A DNA stretch of 64,000 nucleotides, from the NCBI GenBank assembly GCA_963665235.2, contig CAXXLX010000002.1, forward strand, positions 352,001-416,000, read 5' to 3'. The stretch's first letter is position 1. Each line of letters starts with the position of its first letter. This DNA is from Candidatus Poribacteria bacterium. GTDB taxonomy: Bacteria; Poribacteria; WGA-4E; WGA-3G. Made by a program: the position numbers and the translations under genes. Below the pieces are notes generated by a model. It was not told where the DNA came from, did no database searches, and worked only from the letters and a program-made list of their open reading frames with translations. Positions 54,421 to 59,117 of this stretch are shown piece after piece.

Positions 54421-55491
54421 TTAACGGCTTTTTGTTCCACGGGGATAAGAGCCCAGAACTTTAACGCTCTGGCAAACCGTCTTAAGTTGGGCGAGCGCGG
54501 CATCCACAGGTTCATCTGCAATATGCCCATCCATATCGGCGAAAAAGATATACTCCCACGCCTTAGAACGCGAAGGGAGGGATTCAATATAGCTGAGGTT
54601 TCGCTGATATTTCTCTAATATGCCCAACACTTCGTATAACGCGCCGACTTTGTCTTTCACAGAAAAAAAGAAGGAGGTGCAATCATCCCCACTTCTGTCG
54701 ACGGTTTCCGTGCCAATCACGAGAAAACGGGTCGTATTATTCGGATTATCCATAATGGAGTCTGCTACTACCGGTACGTGATAAATATCACTTGCGAGTT
54801 TGCTAGCGATTGCTGCAGCATTCGCTTCATTTGCTGCACGTTGTGCTGCCTCTGACGTACTCACAACTTCAACCTGCTCCACCGTTTTCACAAACTGATT
54901 TAGCCACATTCTGCATTGTGCAAAAGGCTGTCGATGTGAGTAGATACGTTGGATTTCTGTGAGAGAAACCCTTGATATCAGGTGGTGCCGAATAGGTTGA
55001 AAAATCTCAGCGCAGATTTTCAGCGGGGTATCTTGAAAACGTTCTAAAACATCCCGGACAGTCCCGTGTATAGAATTTTCTATGGCTACCACGCCGTAGT
55101 CAGCACGTCCAGTTTCCACCTCGGTAAAGATATCGGTCTGCGGCGTAATCGGCAGCATCTGAGCGGAGGTGCCGAAATGGACTAAGCTTGCAGTGTGTCC
55201 GAAACTTCCAGCAGGACCGAGGAAGGCAACCCGTTCGGGGGCTTGCAAAGCACGAGATGCCGAGAAAATTTCGGTCCAGATTTTCTCCAGGGCAGCGTCG
55301 GGAAATTTACCGCCGTTCTGCGCTTTCAATCGGTTGCGAATTTCGGTTTCACGCTGCGGCGAGTAGATTTCTATACCTGTCCCCGCTTTTACAGAACCGA
55401 CCTGTTTGGCAATATCCGCCCGTTTGTGAAGCAGTGCCAAAATTTCGTCATCTATCTCGTTAAGTTGGTCTCGATATTTCTTAAGTTCCAA
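54421..55491 (-). CDS. pheA: Chorismate mutase / prephenate dehydratase
   Basis: N-terminal CM (R..L.EID..I..L..R), FLGP.GS, ENS..G.V, SH.Q..QC, N.TRF, IES.PS, LGSYP. Confidence 0.95.
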   Translation of the reverse strand: MELKKYRDQLNEIDDEILALLHKRADIAKQVGSVKAGTGIEIYSPQRETEIRNRLKAQNGGKFPDAALEKIWTEIFSASRALQAPERVAFLGPAGSFGHTASLVHFGTSAQMLPITPQTDIFTEVETGRADYGVVAIENSIHGTVRDVLERFQDTPLKICAEIFQPIRHHLISRVSLTEIQRIYSHRQPFAQCRMWLNQFVKTVEQVEVVSTSEAAQRAANEANAAAIASKLASDIYHVPVVADSIMDNPNNTTRFLVIGTETVDRSGDDCTSFFFSVKDKVGALYEVLGILEKYQRNLSYIESLPSRSKAWEYIFFADMDGHIADEPVDAALAQLKTVCQSVKVLGSYPRGTKSR

Positions 55492-55574
55492 ATCTTTGAT
55501 GTTCCTTGCCGTTTTGATTGTGACGCATCTTATAGTAGCTCTTATAATTATTTATACACGCGGTGAGAATCGCA

Positions 55575-55666
55575 CGGGCGGGGAGACCCCGCCCCTACAA
55601 GTAATTTATGAGATACGCTCTAATAGCGTAACGGCTCGTACACGACGGGCGATGAATCGCCCTACT
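55575..55666. repeat. Two GTAG-family REPs
   Basis: CGGGCGGGGAGACCCCGCCCCTAC and CGGGCGATGAATCGCCCTAC. The first has an inverted copy at 63329. Confidence 0.7.
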
Positions 55667-55675
55667 ACGAACCGA

Positions 55676-55924
55676 CTACTCCCCGTTCAATTCCCTCATA
55701 GCGGCAATCATCTCATCATCTGAGGGATTGTCTTTCACCATCTGAACGAATTCGTCAGGCGTTAGCTTATGTTCCTCCAGGAACATTCTGTCCTGCGGTC
55801 ACGGGTAAATATATTCCCCGATGATGCCAGCCATCTTCGCGTTCGCTTTGTCCGAAATTCTGGCTAACCAAGGAATGCCGCCGATAATCATATCACGGTG
55901 CCGCGGTTTCCAATCGAGAGACAT
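55676..55924 (-). CDS. DUF5069-like small protein with an in-frame UGA (putative selenocysteine at codon 42)
   Basis: AAGGAGG SD. MSLDWKPR...GGIPWLARISDKANA...GEYIYP-UGA-PQDRMFL...TPDEF......SDDEM continues in frame. Hairpin 12 nt after the UGA. Confidence 0.75.
55769..55786 (-). promoter_or_regulatory. Putative bacterial SECIS stem-loop
   Basis: AUGUUCC-UGGA-GGAACAU, a perfect 7-bp stem with a G-containing loop, starting 12 nt 3' of the UGA. Confidence 0.6.
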
Positions 55925-55973
55925 CTTTTTCACCTCCTTTAGTAATAGCATAGCAGCATTCGGAGCATGCCTG

Positions 55974-58900
55974 CTATTGGATATTTTCCTCAAGTTGCCC
56001 CAAGGTTTTCCCTAACAATTCAATGTTTCGTCCGTATTCCGCCCAGTCTCCGTTGCGTTGTGCGTTCTGCGCGCTATTATAGTAGACGCTCGCCTGTTTA
56101 ATTAATCCCTGAAACGATGTTTCACCTTCGCTAGGCTCGGTTACCTCAACGGTATCACCGGCGGTAGATGTAGTGGATTCAATTTGGGCACCCGCCCTCT
56201 TCATGAACATCGTTTTAAGTGCCTCATCGAGACTTTCGCCCCAGACGACATCCTCCTCATATCCGATGACAACGCGGCGGAGTTCCGGTATCGCGGTTTC
56301 TTCATCTTCGGACTGAATATAGATGGGTTCCACATAAAGCAGCGAGTTGTTCATTGGCATAATTAAGAGGTTGCCGCGCAGAACACGTGTGCCTTCTGTG
56401 TTCCATAAACTGATTTGCTGCGAAATCTCAGGTTTTTGACTAATAAAGTTTTCAACCTGCATCGGCCCGGGCACCAATTTCCGTTTAGGAAATCGGTAGA
56501 CAAGCAGCTGACCATATTGTGGTAAATCGCATCGAGCGGCGAGCCACGCGATGAGATTCGGTTTGTTCCGAGGGGTATACGGAATCATCAACATAAACTC
56601 TGCCTTCTCTTCCCCCGGAAGCCTGAGCACAACGTAGTAAGGCTCTACTGGCTGCACGTTGCTCGGTGATTTTTGAACAATTGGACGCCGTTGCGCGAAC
56701 GGTGTCGTTGGCTGCGCTGTAACGGGCTGAGTGCTTTGTGCATCCGTGTTGTCATACAGTTCAGTCCCGATTTCCCACTGGTCCTCACCTGCATAAAAGG
56801 TTACCGGGTCTTTCATGTGATAATCTTGATAGATACGTGCCTGTATAAGGAACATTGTCGTTGGATAGCGGATATGCGCTTTCAGTTCAGCGGGCATCTC
56901 CTCGAACGTCTTGAAAAGCTTCGGAAAAATTTTGCGATAGCACTCCGCAATTGGATCTTGTTCCTGTTCAATGAGATAAAAATCAACTGTACCATCGTAA
57001 GCATCAACAACAACCTTCACAGAATTTCGGATGTAATTTCCCCACGATTGGTTATCCCTCCGCTGCATGAATTCCTCCGTAGAAACAGCATACGGGTACC
57101 GGTGCGTGACGGTATACGCATCAATCATCCAGACAAGTTTGCCGTTATAGATAACAGCGTACGGGTCGCCATCGTACCGCAAGAACGGGGCAATTTTAAG
57201 GATGCGCTCCTTGATATTTCGCTTGTAAAGCACACGGCTTTTTGACGTAATTTCACCCGGCAACACAAATTTGATTTCGTTATTAAACTTCAGCATGTAC
57301 ACCAGCTTCCGCCAGAAAGAGGATAGCACAACACCACCTTTACCTTGATAGGCGTAGTCAACGTACTGTTGTCCCTCCTTCGGATAATCAAACTCAAGCT
57401 TTAGCTCGGTACGTTCCGGGTGCACAATGACATACCGATTCGTCCGTTCACCGTAGTAGACACGGGGCCCCGGTTTATCCGGCTCGCCATCAAACCTAAA
57501 CGGCCATTCTGATTCATACTCAATCGGGGGCAATCCTTTAATGTACATATAAGGTTTACCGTTATCGATTTCGTTTACTGGACTGACCACAGCCCCATAA
57601 CCGTGTGTATAGGTATAAGTCTGCTTATACCAATCATTTCTCACAGCCGGCGGGAGGTCCTCTATATTTAGTTCTCGTACAGAGAGCATCACCTGCTGCG
57701 GATCATCTTCAAGCGTATATCTATCAATATCAACATCGAAAAAATCGTACTGTGAACGTAACTCTTGGAGTTGTCTGAAGGTTCGGCGTAGCGGTCGCCA
57801 ATCCCAAAGACGGATACTATTAATGACAGGCTCGTTCTCGGGACTCATTATGTCAGTATATGCAAGCTCCTCTGTCAGTGGATATTCCTCTTCCGTCACA
57901 GTATTATCCTCTAAACCGTAAGCGTGAAGCGTCGCCTTGATATTGTAATTGATATATTTTTCCTCTAACACCTGTTTATTCGGTTCAACCCGCCACGTCT
58001 GTATCAGTTTCGGGTACATCTGACCGAGCAAACCAGCGGCTATAAATATACCCAATGCCCCGAAAGCAAACGTGTTGCGTTTCAGGAAAATGCTCACAAT
58101 CAGAACTATGGCACACACCAAGGTTAGCCAGAAGAGAATATGTAGCACTGGCAGCCGTGCCTGTATTGCAGCGTAACCCCCACCGCCACGCACAACATCG
58201 TTTGAGGTATAGAGAAGGTCATACATTGCAAAGCGGTAGTTCCACATTCGGAAAAGAAGCGTCACACCGCCTAAAGCGAACAGATGTGCTTTCACAGCAG
58301 GGGGGGGTTGAAACCGGAACTCATTTGTGTCGCCTGTTATTAACCCGTGGAAAAAGTAGATAATCAACGCAAAAACTGTCACTAATAGGAACAGACCGAA
58401 AAGCGTTCCGCAGATATATCGCTCCATCGGCATTTTAAACACATAATAGGCAACATCCTTATTAAAAACTGGGTCGCGAGCTGGAGATGTGAAAAACGCT
58501 TTCTGCCCCACCTCTATCTGAACCGGTGTACTCAAACGGATACCGTTTGGCAACATTGCTTCCACACTCCCTGTTTGTTCATTCCCATCAACGTGAACGG
58601 TCACTTCGTCACCGACCTGTATCTTTTTCGCCGCTAATTCTAACGTTGAGACAGGTATTTCAGGGGAATCGAGGTTGTTTTCTACAACAATAGGCGTGGC
58701 AGTGCGGAACATAAGTTCATCGGTATGGGTGTAACGTAAATAGACCTCCCAGCGGGCACTTGCAGCGTAACCCATCAAGATACTATATAAAATAGCAAGA
58801 AGCGCGAGACCCCCATAAATCAGTCTTCGCGTGTCCGGTTGGTCGCCTGTAAACTCTGTCCCTCCCATAAAGGTAGGGCTGAGATGTGCCGGTGTGAACC

Positions 58901-59117
58901 GATAGACCAAGTAGAGGTTAACCGAAAGGATTAGCAGATAGATTACCCCAACAATGGCCCCGACGAAGATTTTGGTCGACAGAATCTTGGTATAAACCCC
59001 AAGGTAGTTCACCATGTCGAACCATAAAAAATCTGGATAAATATTAATCCAAGCGGCAACAATACCAACAAGTACCGCTAAGATTGCGATAGTAATAATA
59101 AAACGTTTTTGAATCAT
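55974..59117 (-). CDS. UPF0182 family membrane protein
   Basis: D.LWF, DPVF.KD..YYVF..P, IRLWD, Y.F.DVDIDRY, YTHGYG, NYIRNSVK.VVDAYDG, PYY, GNLL..P..LLYVEP.Y, GDWAEYG. Confidence 0.95.
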   Translation of the reverse strand: MIQKRFIITIAILAVLVGIVAAWINIYPDFLWFDMVNYLGVYTKILSTKIFVGAIVGVIYLLILSVNLYLVYRFTPAHLSPTFMGGTEFTGDQPDTRRLIYGGLALLAILYSILMGYAASARWEVYLRYTHTDELMFRTATPIVVENNLDSPEIPVSTLELAAKKIQVGDEVTVHVDGNEQTGSVEAMLPNGIRLSTPVQIEVGQKAFFTSPARDPVFNKDVAYYVFKMPMERYICGTLFGLFLLVTVFALIIYFFHGLITGDTNEFRFQPPPAVKAHLFALGGVTLLFRMWNYRFAMYDLLYTSNDVVRGGGGYAAIQARLPVLHILFWLTLVCAIVLIVSIFLKRNTFAFGALGIFIAAGLLGQMYPKLIQTWRVEPNKQVLEEKYINYNIKATLHAYGLEDNTVTEEEYPLTEELAYTDIMSPENEPVINSIRLWDWRPLRRTFRQLQELRSQYDFFDVDIDRYTLEDDPQQVMLSVRELNIEDLPPAVRNDWYKQTYTYTHGYGAVVSPVNEIDNGKPYMYIKGLPPIEYESEWPFRFDGEPDKPGPRVYYGERTNRYVIVHPERTELKLEFDYPKEGQQYVDYAYQGKGGVVLSSFWRKLVYMLKFNNEIKFVLPGEITSKSRVLYKRNIKERILKIAPFLRYDGDPYAVIYNGKLVWMIDAYTVTHRYPYAVSTEEFMQRRDNQSWGNYIRNSVKVVVDAYDGTVDFYLIEQEQDPIAECYRKIFPKLFKTFEEMPAELKAHIRYPTTMFLIQARIYQDYHMKDPVTFYAGEDQWEIGTELYDNTDAQSTQPVTAQPTTPFAQRRPIVQKSPSNVQPVEPYYVVLRLPGEEKAEFMLMIPYTPRNKPNLIAWLAARCDLPQYGQLLVYRFPKRKLVPGPMQVENFISQKPEISQQISLWNTEGTRVLRGNLLIMPMNNSLLYVEPIYIQSEDEETAIPELRRVVIGYEEDVVWGESLDEALKTMFMKRAGAQIESTTSTAGDTVEVTEPSEGETSFQGLIKQASVYYNSAQNAQRNGDWAEYGRNIELLGKTLGQLEENIQ

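Follow-up and report, generated by a model that had tools for sequence, protein, structure and literature searches.

A probable selenocysteine codon within a short DUF5069 gene of Poribacteria, and the small hairpin that accompanies it

Does an in-frame TGA end a gene of 41 codons, or is it read as selenocysteine (Sec) inside a protein about twice as long? The question is raised by the minus strand of a 64,000-nucleotide (nt) stretch of a Candidatus Poribacteria genome (assembly GCA_963665235.2, contig CAXXLX010000002.1, positions 352,001 to 416,000), the whole of which is called the window here and supplies all plain coordinates. A list of open reading frames (ORFs) made with genetic code table 11 closes the upstream half of this gene at ...YIYP. 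A first-pass annotation had proposed instead that the frame encodes a Sec protein of the DUF5069 family, and that a hairpin just 3' of the UGA acts as its selenocysteine insertion sequence (SECIS). From comparative sequence analysis we consider it very probable that the 82-residue frame is a genuine selenoprotein gene in which UGA-42 is decoded as Sec. The parts of the gene are as follows:

55676..55924, minus strand: candidate coding sequence (CDS) of a short DUF5069 selenoprotein, 82 sense codons, TGA read through
55933..55937, minus strand: Shine-Dalgarno motif GGAGG, upstream of the ATG at 55924
55924-55922, minus strand: start codon ATG, read in the sequence
55799..55801, minus strand: in-frame UGA, codon 42, the predicted selenocysteine codon
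55675-55673, minus strand: stop codon TAG, after 40 post-TGA sense codons that end at 55676

Homology and coding constraint across the UGA

The proposed continuation of the frame for 40 codons past GEYIYP is present in the sequence, running from 55924 to 55676 with the TGA at 55801..55799, and a GGAGG-type motif occupies the equivalent position in most of 61 orthologous loci, a few deep-branching ones deviating. When the read-through product is aligned to the Pfam hidden Markov model of DUF5069 (PF16798), it scores 52.8 bits against a gathering cut-off of 27 (E 5.9e-14), with residues 7-78 corresponding to profile positions 4-75 of 133. Homology crosses the TGA, because this match is one continuous stretch; a search of the genome with PF16798 likewise gave 47.1 bits, with one TGA within the match. 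The assignment to DUF5069 therefore holds, but the 82-amino-acid (aa) protein is a short form: it ends at profile position 75 and covers only the N-terminal 75 of 133 positions, so that the full domain is not recovered.

Which residue do relatives carry where the window has TGA? A search of 1.84 billion representative proteins returned 246 relatives at E up to 0.001, and 164 relatives were aligned to the query as 180 domain rows. The TGA column in these rows holds Cys 114 times, Ser 25 times, Trp 12 times, other residues 13 times and a gap 16 times. The UGA thus lies at the conserved Cys of DUF5069 (114/164 aligned residues), as the first-pass annotation had supposed from the motif EY.Y.CP.D..FL; the conserved version differs slightly from that form and reads Y-x-Y-P-C/U-P-x-D. 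The 12 Trp rows (P0001-P0011 and P0021) are evidently TGA codons read as Trp, most gaps come from calls that end in ...YIYP, and the Ser rows are mostly repeats from multi-domain proteins. Alignment A1 comprises 73 chosen sequences no longer than about 160 aa and excludes the rows with Ser at the column; K26, C42 and D45 do not vary in it, and conservation is at least 90% at R22, D25 and D69. The invariance of C42 in A1 is in part a consequence of how the set was chosen, the unselected count being the 114/164 given above. Homologs bearing Cys comprise eight orthologs from one Poribacteria family (f8; TGC or TGT), the public proteins P0012 and P0013, and 15 of 80 metagenome loci.

Constraint on the two halves was measured on the 117 unique Sec-form and 8 Cys-form CDS extracted from all loci, by comparing 800 random pairs among the 97 sequences of commonest length for synonymous (pS) and nonsynonymous (pN) divergence:

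Pre-UGA codons 2-41: pS 0.657, pN 0.068, pN/pS 0.104
Post-UGA codons 43-80: pS 0.614, pN 0.099, pN/pS 0.162

With ratios of 0.10 and 0.16, both halves are therefore protein-coding and constrained. This result bears directly on the simplest alternative, namely that the TGA is a true stop, that only a 41-residue peptide is made and that the 36-40 codons beyond the TGA belong to another small ORF or represent a remnant or pseudogene. Table-11 gene calling gives exactly this outcome, the public NCBI and ENA calls agree with it, and an in-frame ATG stands four codons past the TGA. Yet purifying selection acts on the post-TGA codons in the frame of the first half (pN/pS 0.16), both halves align to one Pfam domain without interruption, they are contiguous in all Cys-form orthologs, and 160 genomes retain precisely this arrangement; Met-47, the residue encoded by the downstream ATG, is conserved in just 75 of 117 sequences. 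A true stop is thus extremely improbable.

The expectation that gene callers truncate the gene proved correct. The NCBI and ENA calls P0014-P0017 are cut at the TGA and end in ...YIYP, and the full-length calls P0001-P0011 and P0021, which place Trp at the TGA, come from short metagenome contigs apparently translated with genetic code 4. The gene is wrong in public data in one of these two ways wherever it was checked, which effectively hides a protein that ranks among the best-conserved small ones of this phylum of sponge symbionts. At the RNA level, three metatranscriptome runs from a single study give assembled contigs that span 55697-56452, 55696-56020 and 55685-56108; they include both flanks of the UGA and extend past the start codon to the 3' end of the upstream gene. 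Among the RNA contig matches listed there is no difference at the TGA. These contigs fit transcription of the whole frame.

The hairpin downstream of the UGA

If the UGA is decoded as Sec, what would set it apart from a stop codon? A perfect hairpin had been noted 12 nt past the UGA, and it is indeed there, with the G in the apical loop and the place just 3' of the UGA that are expected of a bacterial SECIS:

55769..55786, minus strand: SECIS-like hairpin AUGUUCC-UGGA-GGAACAU, perfect stem of 7 base pairs (bp), 12-nt spacer after the TGA
55786-55780, minus strand: 5' arm AUGUUCC
55779-55776, minus strand: loop UGGA
55775-55769, minus strand: 3' arm GGAACAU

The conserved core of this element, GUUCC-UGGA-GGAAC, coincides with codons 48-51, which specify F-L-E-E. 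Among Sec forms the synonymous divergence pS is 0.015 in these four codons versus 0.685 in the remaining post-UGA part. Codon usage in the 117 Sec forms makes the difference plain, the last three lines being comparison codons outside the hairpin core:

Codon 48, Phe: TTC 117
Codon 49, Leu: CTG 116, TTG 1
Codon 50, Glu: GAG 117
Codon 51, Glu: GAA 116, GAG 1
Codon 38, Tyr: TAT 70, TAC 47
Codon 45, Asp: GAT 69, GAC 48
Codon 59, Phe: TTT 65, TTC 52

The lone exceptions at codons 49 and 51 preserve a wobble pair. In the eight Cys forms codons 48-51 vary, and so do the amino acids that they encode.

Base pairing is maintained with similar strictness. In an alignment of 75-nt segments, every one of 107 distinct sequences forms the five inner base pairs; this core is closed by GC in 104, AU in 2 and GU in 1, and the two outer pairs of the 7-bp stem are made in 68 and 92 of the 107. 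When the pairing partner is shifted by 1-3 columns, the paired share falls from 92.8% to 30-71%. All 166 distinct Sec-form sequences have a stem of 5 bp or more at this position (5 pairs in 22, 6 in 57 and 7 in 87), with a UGGA loop in 161 of the 166. Divergent metagenome clades carry compensatory stems in the equivalent position (AAGUUCC/GGAACUU, CGCUUCC/GGAAGUG, CGCUUCC/GGGAGCG and AGCUUC/GAAGCU); among the variants of the core are a shift from GUUCC/GGAAC to CUUCC/GGAAG and the pair AUUCC/GGAAU. The hairpin is found in none of 20 distinct Cys forms; six of these reach 5-6 pairs somewhere in a permissive search range, with arms and loops unrelated to those of the Sec forms. The conservation in relatives that the first-pass annotation had pointed to as a check is thus confirmed, and a hairpin that accompanies TGA so strictly is what one would expect of a SECIS element.

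How does the element compare with known ones? In E. coli a minimal upper stem-loop about 11 nt from the UGA suffices. Like the fdhF-type SECIS of that organism, the window hairpin lies within the CDS soon after the UGA, at a spacing of about 11-12 nt, and has a G in its apical loop. It differs in being far smaller, with a conserved core of 5 bp and a UGGA tetraloop, and neither a conserved bulged U nor a GU step within the loop was seen. A longer SECIS with a CAGG/CCUG lower stem, drawn from RNAfold, was considered and rejected, the alifold consensus of 103 sequences keeping the 5-bp core only.

Several observations weigh against a SECIS and against Sec decoding. The hairpin is small, with five conserved base pairs, and no conserved lower stem appears in the alifold consensus. 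Folded as a single sequence of 71 nt, the region is no more stable than its shuffles (minimum free energy -14.6 kcal/mol, z = -0.75, 38 of 200 shuffles as good); since this value is within chance, it is the comparison among sequences that gives the hairpin its significance. A scan against Rfam (release 15) matched no SECIS family and gave four chance-level matches (E 2.7-6.5, 10-14 bits). Sec forms never vary in the F-L-E-E residues themselves, so that some of the nucleotide conservation may stem from constraint on the protein, although the frozen third positions stay unexplained by it. The RNA contigs derive from one study, in which DNA carry-over is possible. Finally, the Cys state does not track loss of the Sec machinery: selA is retained in seven of the eight Cys-form genomes. 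The Sec/Cys switch is therefore specific to this gene and not a result of machinery loss.

What is the value of such an element? As a natural, very small and densely sampled SECIS candidate (166 distinct sequences with covariation), it could help to widen bacterial SECIS models, which the discussion of one paper in the field itself calls incomplete (PMC12013277).

Sec machinery, distribution and ancestry

The genome of the window (5.3 Mb in 4 contigs) is well equipped to decode Sec. It carries selA (601 bits), selB (357 bits) and selD (359 bits), each above its curated cut-off, and immediately after selB a tRNA-Sec (78 bits) that ARAGORN reports as tRNA-SeC with anticodon tca. The selA/selB/selC/selD set on which the proposal depends is therefore complete, with tRNA-Sec(UCA) as its fourth member. 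The selD gene (L001, G000:C1:3841015-3841941) has an in-frame TGA of its own, of the Sec-type SelD, so the genome has at least two selenoprotein genes.

Sec insertion at UGA-42 and binding of SelB to the hairpin are predicted by analogy with the established bacterial mechanism; a redox or nucleophilic role of the Sec is likewise a prediction. Translation would start at the ATG at 55924. At UGA-42, SelB-GTP with Sec-tRNA (Sec, anticodon UCA) would be recruited by the SECIS hairpin 12-14 nt downstream, through a stem of 5-7 bp and the UGGA loop; Sec would be inserted and translation would proceed for 40 more codons. The predicted product is a protein of 81-82 residues and four helices that represents the N-terminal half of the DUF5069 fold, as in the structure 3omd. 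Its Sec would cap helix 2 at the N-terminal end, within the motif Y-x-Y-P-U-P-x-D, with R22, D25, K26, D45 and D69 as the other invariant or near-invariant residues, and would most likely act on, or be recycled by, an external thiol or substrate.

Might the UGA be read without selenium, either through a reassigned code (Trp or Gly) or by near-cognate suppression? The public calls with Trp at this position (P0001-P0011, P0021) would agree with such a reading, apart from their apparent origin in code-4 translation of short metagenome contigs. However, TGA is an ordinary stop in these genomes, for example in the extended orthologs described below, homologs have Cys and not Trp or Gly at the column, a dedicated hairpin strictly co-occurs with the TGA and the full Sec machinery is present. 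Decoding without selenium is hardly credible on these grounds. The extended orthologs belong to one Poribacteria family (f2; L057, L062, L064, L065, L067, L072, L073, L079 and L080) and are lengthened at the C-terminus by about 12-17 residues rich in Lys, Arg and Ser. TGA terminates most of these orthologs, so one mRNA would use a first UGA as Sec and a second as stop.

How widely is the UGA form distributed? At the level of the order, the best match in all 61 genomes (4 families, 13 genera) is an ortholog with exactly one in-frame TGA and 59-84% identity to the window protein. Across the phylum an ortholog occurs in 168 of 176 genomes (E up to 1e-12), with TGA in 160 and a Cys codon in 8; the Cys-form genomes all belong to family f8 and span five genera (TGC in seven, TGT in one), and each of the 117 unique Sec-form CDS has TGA. 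The eight genomes in which no ortholog was found are two incomplete members of the window's family and members of three deeper families, in one of which selA is also absent (3/3 genomes). In a scan of JGI metagenome contigs we found 80 loci, 65 with TGA and 15 with Cys, a ratio that should not be read as an unbiased frequency, since the query alignment favoured truncated, Sec-type relatives. Two additional clades, with only about 45-55% identity to the Poribacteria protein, are among these loci. Alternation of UGA and Cys among relatives, which had been anticipated, is thus found both in family f8 and in the metagenome loci. With the UGA present in 160 of 168 ortholog-bearing genomes, none of the three findings that had been named beforehand as fatal to a Sec protein of the uncharacterised DUF5069 family was made: the machinery is not missing, the UGA is not private to one assembly and the aligned column is Cys.

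In which direction has the codon changed? For the short subfamily, comparison of the sequences leads us to infer that Sec is ancestral and that the Cys forms are reversions. The reasons are that one and the same hairpin, built from the F-L-E-E codons, recurs in three divergent clades, that Cys forms are nested among Sec forms in each, and that TGA to TGY takes one substitution, whereas the reverse change additionally needs a SECIS. Since Cys forms are scattered within each of at least three clades 45-55% identical, the pattern points to repeated Sec-to-Cys reversions.

Is this a family that has already been described? The locus resembles computationally predicted bacterial selenoprotein families of the Zhang and Gladyshev type in its conserved UGA, its Sec/Cys pair within conserved flanking sequence, its post-UGA stem-loop with an apical G and its Sec-utilising host. 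It differs from catalogued families in having a single Sec, no CxxU or UxxC motif and no thioredoxin-like fold. DUF5069/PF16798 is absent from the 119 families in Table 1 of a 2026 review that presents itself as the most comprehensive inventory (PMC13188914); the comparison covered that table, with older families dropped from it (such as GOS_A) and the supplements (BSepDB Table S2, GOS datasets) lying outside, where the family could be listed under a different name. The accessible portions of the papers on deep-Sep, BSepDB and GOS and of later GOS papers (PMC12013277, PMC13326102, PMC2398784, PMC9402790) do not mention the family, NCBIfam models gave 0 families at E up to 1, and the searched literature contains neither DUF5069 nor PF16798. 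Literature on Poribacteria together with selenoproteins or selenocysteine has nothing about a DUF5069 protein in its titles and the opening lines of its abstracts, and literature on 3OMD concerns only 3-O-methyldopa. That this is a new selenoprotein family within a well-known kind is well supported. With it the bacterial selenoproteome gains a family, and Poribacteria are shown to depend on selenium, the gene being kept in nearly all sponge-symbiont Poribacteria and also in other marine bacteria.

Possible role of Sec-42 and the genomic neighbourhood

What might the Sec do? An AlphaFold2 model built with alignment A1 (predicted local distance difference test 94.4, predicted template modelling (TM) score 0.83) has helices at residues 20-32, 43-51, 56-65 and 69-79, so that Sec-42 directly precedes helix 2. 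Foldseek against the PDB gave a sole match, 3omd (TM 0.84, root-mean-square deviation 1.1 Å, 74 columns), the other seven rows having E above 4 and TM below 0.35; the A1 profile also matches 3omd (E 7.8e-41), with the Cys of the latter aligned. The Poribacteria protein shares with 3omd, an uncharacterised DUF5069 protein of Leptospirillum rubarum, the fold and the motifs Y-x-Y-P/N-C-P-x-D and R-x-x-D-K. It differs from 3omd and DUF5069 in general (about 145 aa, Cys) by its length of 81-82 aa and by Sec at that position. Membership of DUF5069 explains nothing mechanistically, because the family has no assigned function.

Full-length members of the family occur in the same lineages. One of them (L052-L054, G000:C1:2527535-2528782, minus strand) is a 433-aa protein with three full-length DUF5069 repeats and no stops, a type found across the order. 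Multi-repeat relatives of this type mostly have Ser, Asp or some other residue in place of the Cys, and to judge from these alignments they are probably without the reactive residue. Single full-length DUF5069 proteins, in frames of 151 and 182 aa without a stop (G080:C60:44124-44522 and G083:C372:10028-10423), coexist with the short Sec form in the same Poribacteria genomes.

The Poribacteria protein contains no Cys, which makes an intramolecular selenenylsulfide impossible and leaves the Sec as, most likely, the only nucleophilic or redox-active residue. The protein has just one Sec, without a UxxC motif or a thioredoxin-like fold. A helix N-cap position with Pro next in line resembles nucleophilic Cys sites, and proteins reserve selenocysteine almost entirely for catalytic positions of a redox or nucleophilic kind. 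By analogy, the placement of Sec-42 at a helix N-cap, followed by Pro and beside invariant Asp, Lys and Arg, suggests a nucleophilic or redox residue. Against a functional reading of this kind, we found no CxxC/CxxU motif, no characterised homolog and no neighbour common to all clades, and we put the chances of a redox or nucleophilic catalytic role at about even. Because Sec is so rarely used elsewhere, the Sec/Cys pair would be the first functional pointer for DUF5069: it singles out the Cys of Y-x-Y-P-C-P-x-D in a family that has a solved structure, 3omd, and no known function.

An alternative accepts the selenoprotein and makes Sec-42 a metal or metalloid ligand, or a carrier of selenium or sulfur, in place of a redox catalyst. 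The single Sec without a partner Cys and the absence of a thioredoxin-like fold are compatible with it, as are the Cys that some divergent metagenome clades have three residues before D69 and the metal-binding nature of several catalogued selenoprotein families (PMC13188914, Table 1). On the other hand, one Sec with carboxylates and Lys/Arg is not a typical soft-metal site, no transporter or metallochaperone genes lie nearby, and the helix cap followed by Pro is reminiscent of nucleophilic Cys. We therefore hold a metal-binding or carrier role to be unlikely. The catalytic reading can be extended to a fuller proposal, in which a family missing from all published inventories, ancestrally Sec-containing, near-universal in Poribacteria and widespread in marine bacteria, has one of the smallest functional bacterial SECIS elements, and in which the Cys of DUF5069 would be the nucleophile of a new, non-thioredoxin-fold class of redox or transferase enzymes. 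Taken as a whole, this proposal is tentative, its chances falling a little short of even.

Do the neighbouring genes offer a hint? The gene is flanked on its own strand by two others:

55974..59117, minus strand: UPF0182 family membrane protein, 1047 aa (PF03699, E 3.1e-241), upstream neighbour
54421..55491, minus strand: pheA, with chorismate mutase, prephenate dehydratase and ACT domains (PF01817, PF00800, PF01842), downstream neighbour

The stop codon of the UPF0182 gene ends 49 nt ahead of the selenoprotein ATG, which agrees with the earlier description of the gene as lying directly downstream of UPF0182, but conservation reaches deepest for pheA, which follows the gene on its own strand in 161 of 172 Poribacteria-type loci, all eight Cys-form loci among them. 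UPF0182 stands upstream in 155 of the 172 and is missing from the deeper-branching families f4, f6 and f8. Co-transcription with UPF0182 had also been suggested, and the RNA contigs that bridge both genes fit the idea, but contigs cannot prove a single transcript. Their cover is absent from most of UPF0182 beyond 56452 and, in two runs, from parts of pheA; one RNA contig, from a related strain, joins the 5' region of pheA to the 3' end of the gene across a different spacer.

Could the selenoprotein be a partner of PheA, for instance by regulating aromatic amino-acid synthesis in response to redox state? The conservation of the gene pair speaks for this, since it includes Cys forms and families without UPF0182 upstream, and so does the RNA contig just mentioned. 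However, pheA is not found near the gene in either divergent metagenome clade of the short family, nor in four loci of one Poribacteria genus, and conserved gene order inside one phylum is weak evidence. Any link to pheA is at best unlikely, and joint action of the two proteins is more doubtful still.

Outside the Poribacteria-type clade, neither pheA nor UPF0182 is near any of the loci. The neighbours there are mutually unrelated: an HDOD/HD response regulator, an SBP_bac_5 protein, an RsmD-like Cons_hypoth95 protein, an NAD-binding oxidoreductase, a short-chain dehydrogenase and three ORFs without a Pfam match. One metagenome clade, recognisable by the N-terminal sequence ...DFKPRARG... (L259, L263, L275, L276, L278 and L280), has a conserved pair of upstream ORFs on the same strand, of about 128 aa and about 350-415 aa, neither with a Pfam match, which could be a clade-specific operon partner.

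Two palindromic elements lie in the interval between the selenoprotein gene and pheA. A scan of 55300-56200 for promoters and terminators found no terminator-like site, and promoter-like sites were at chance level. The GC-rich palindrome nearer pheA, GGGGCGGGG..CCCCGCCC, lies at about 55576-55600; RNA contigs break there, and their loose ends bear a similar palindrome. It may belong to another repeat family or be a terminator without a T-run, of which the terminator scan gave no sign. The other element, with core GGGCGATTCATCGCCC, occupies 55641-55675 on the minus strand (pattern match 55647-55665), immediately past the stop codon. It is dispersed in the genome, with 42 matches at no more than 2 mismatches versus 0 for a reversed control, and some copies are altered in both arms (GGGCAATTCATTGCCC). 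The bin 55641-55675 shows a 50- to 100-fold spike in read depth and many loose ends, and the element looks like a repetitive extragenic palindromic (REP)-type repeat.

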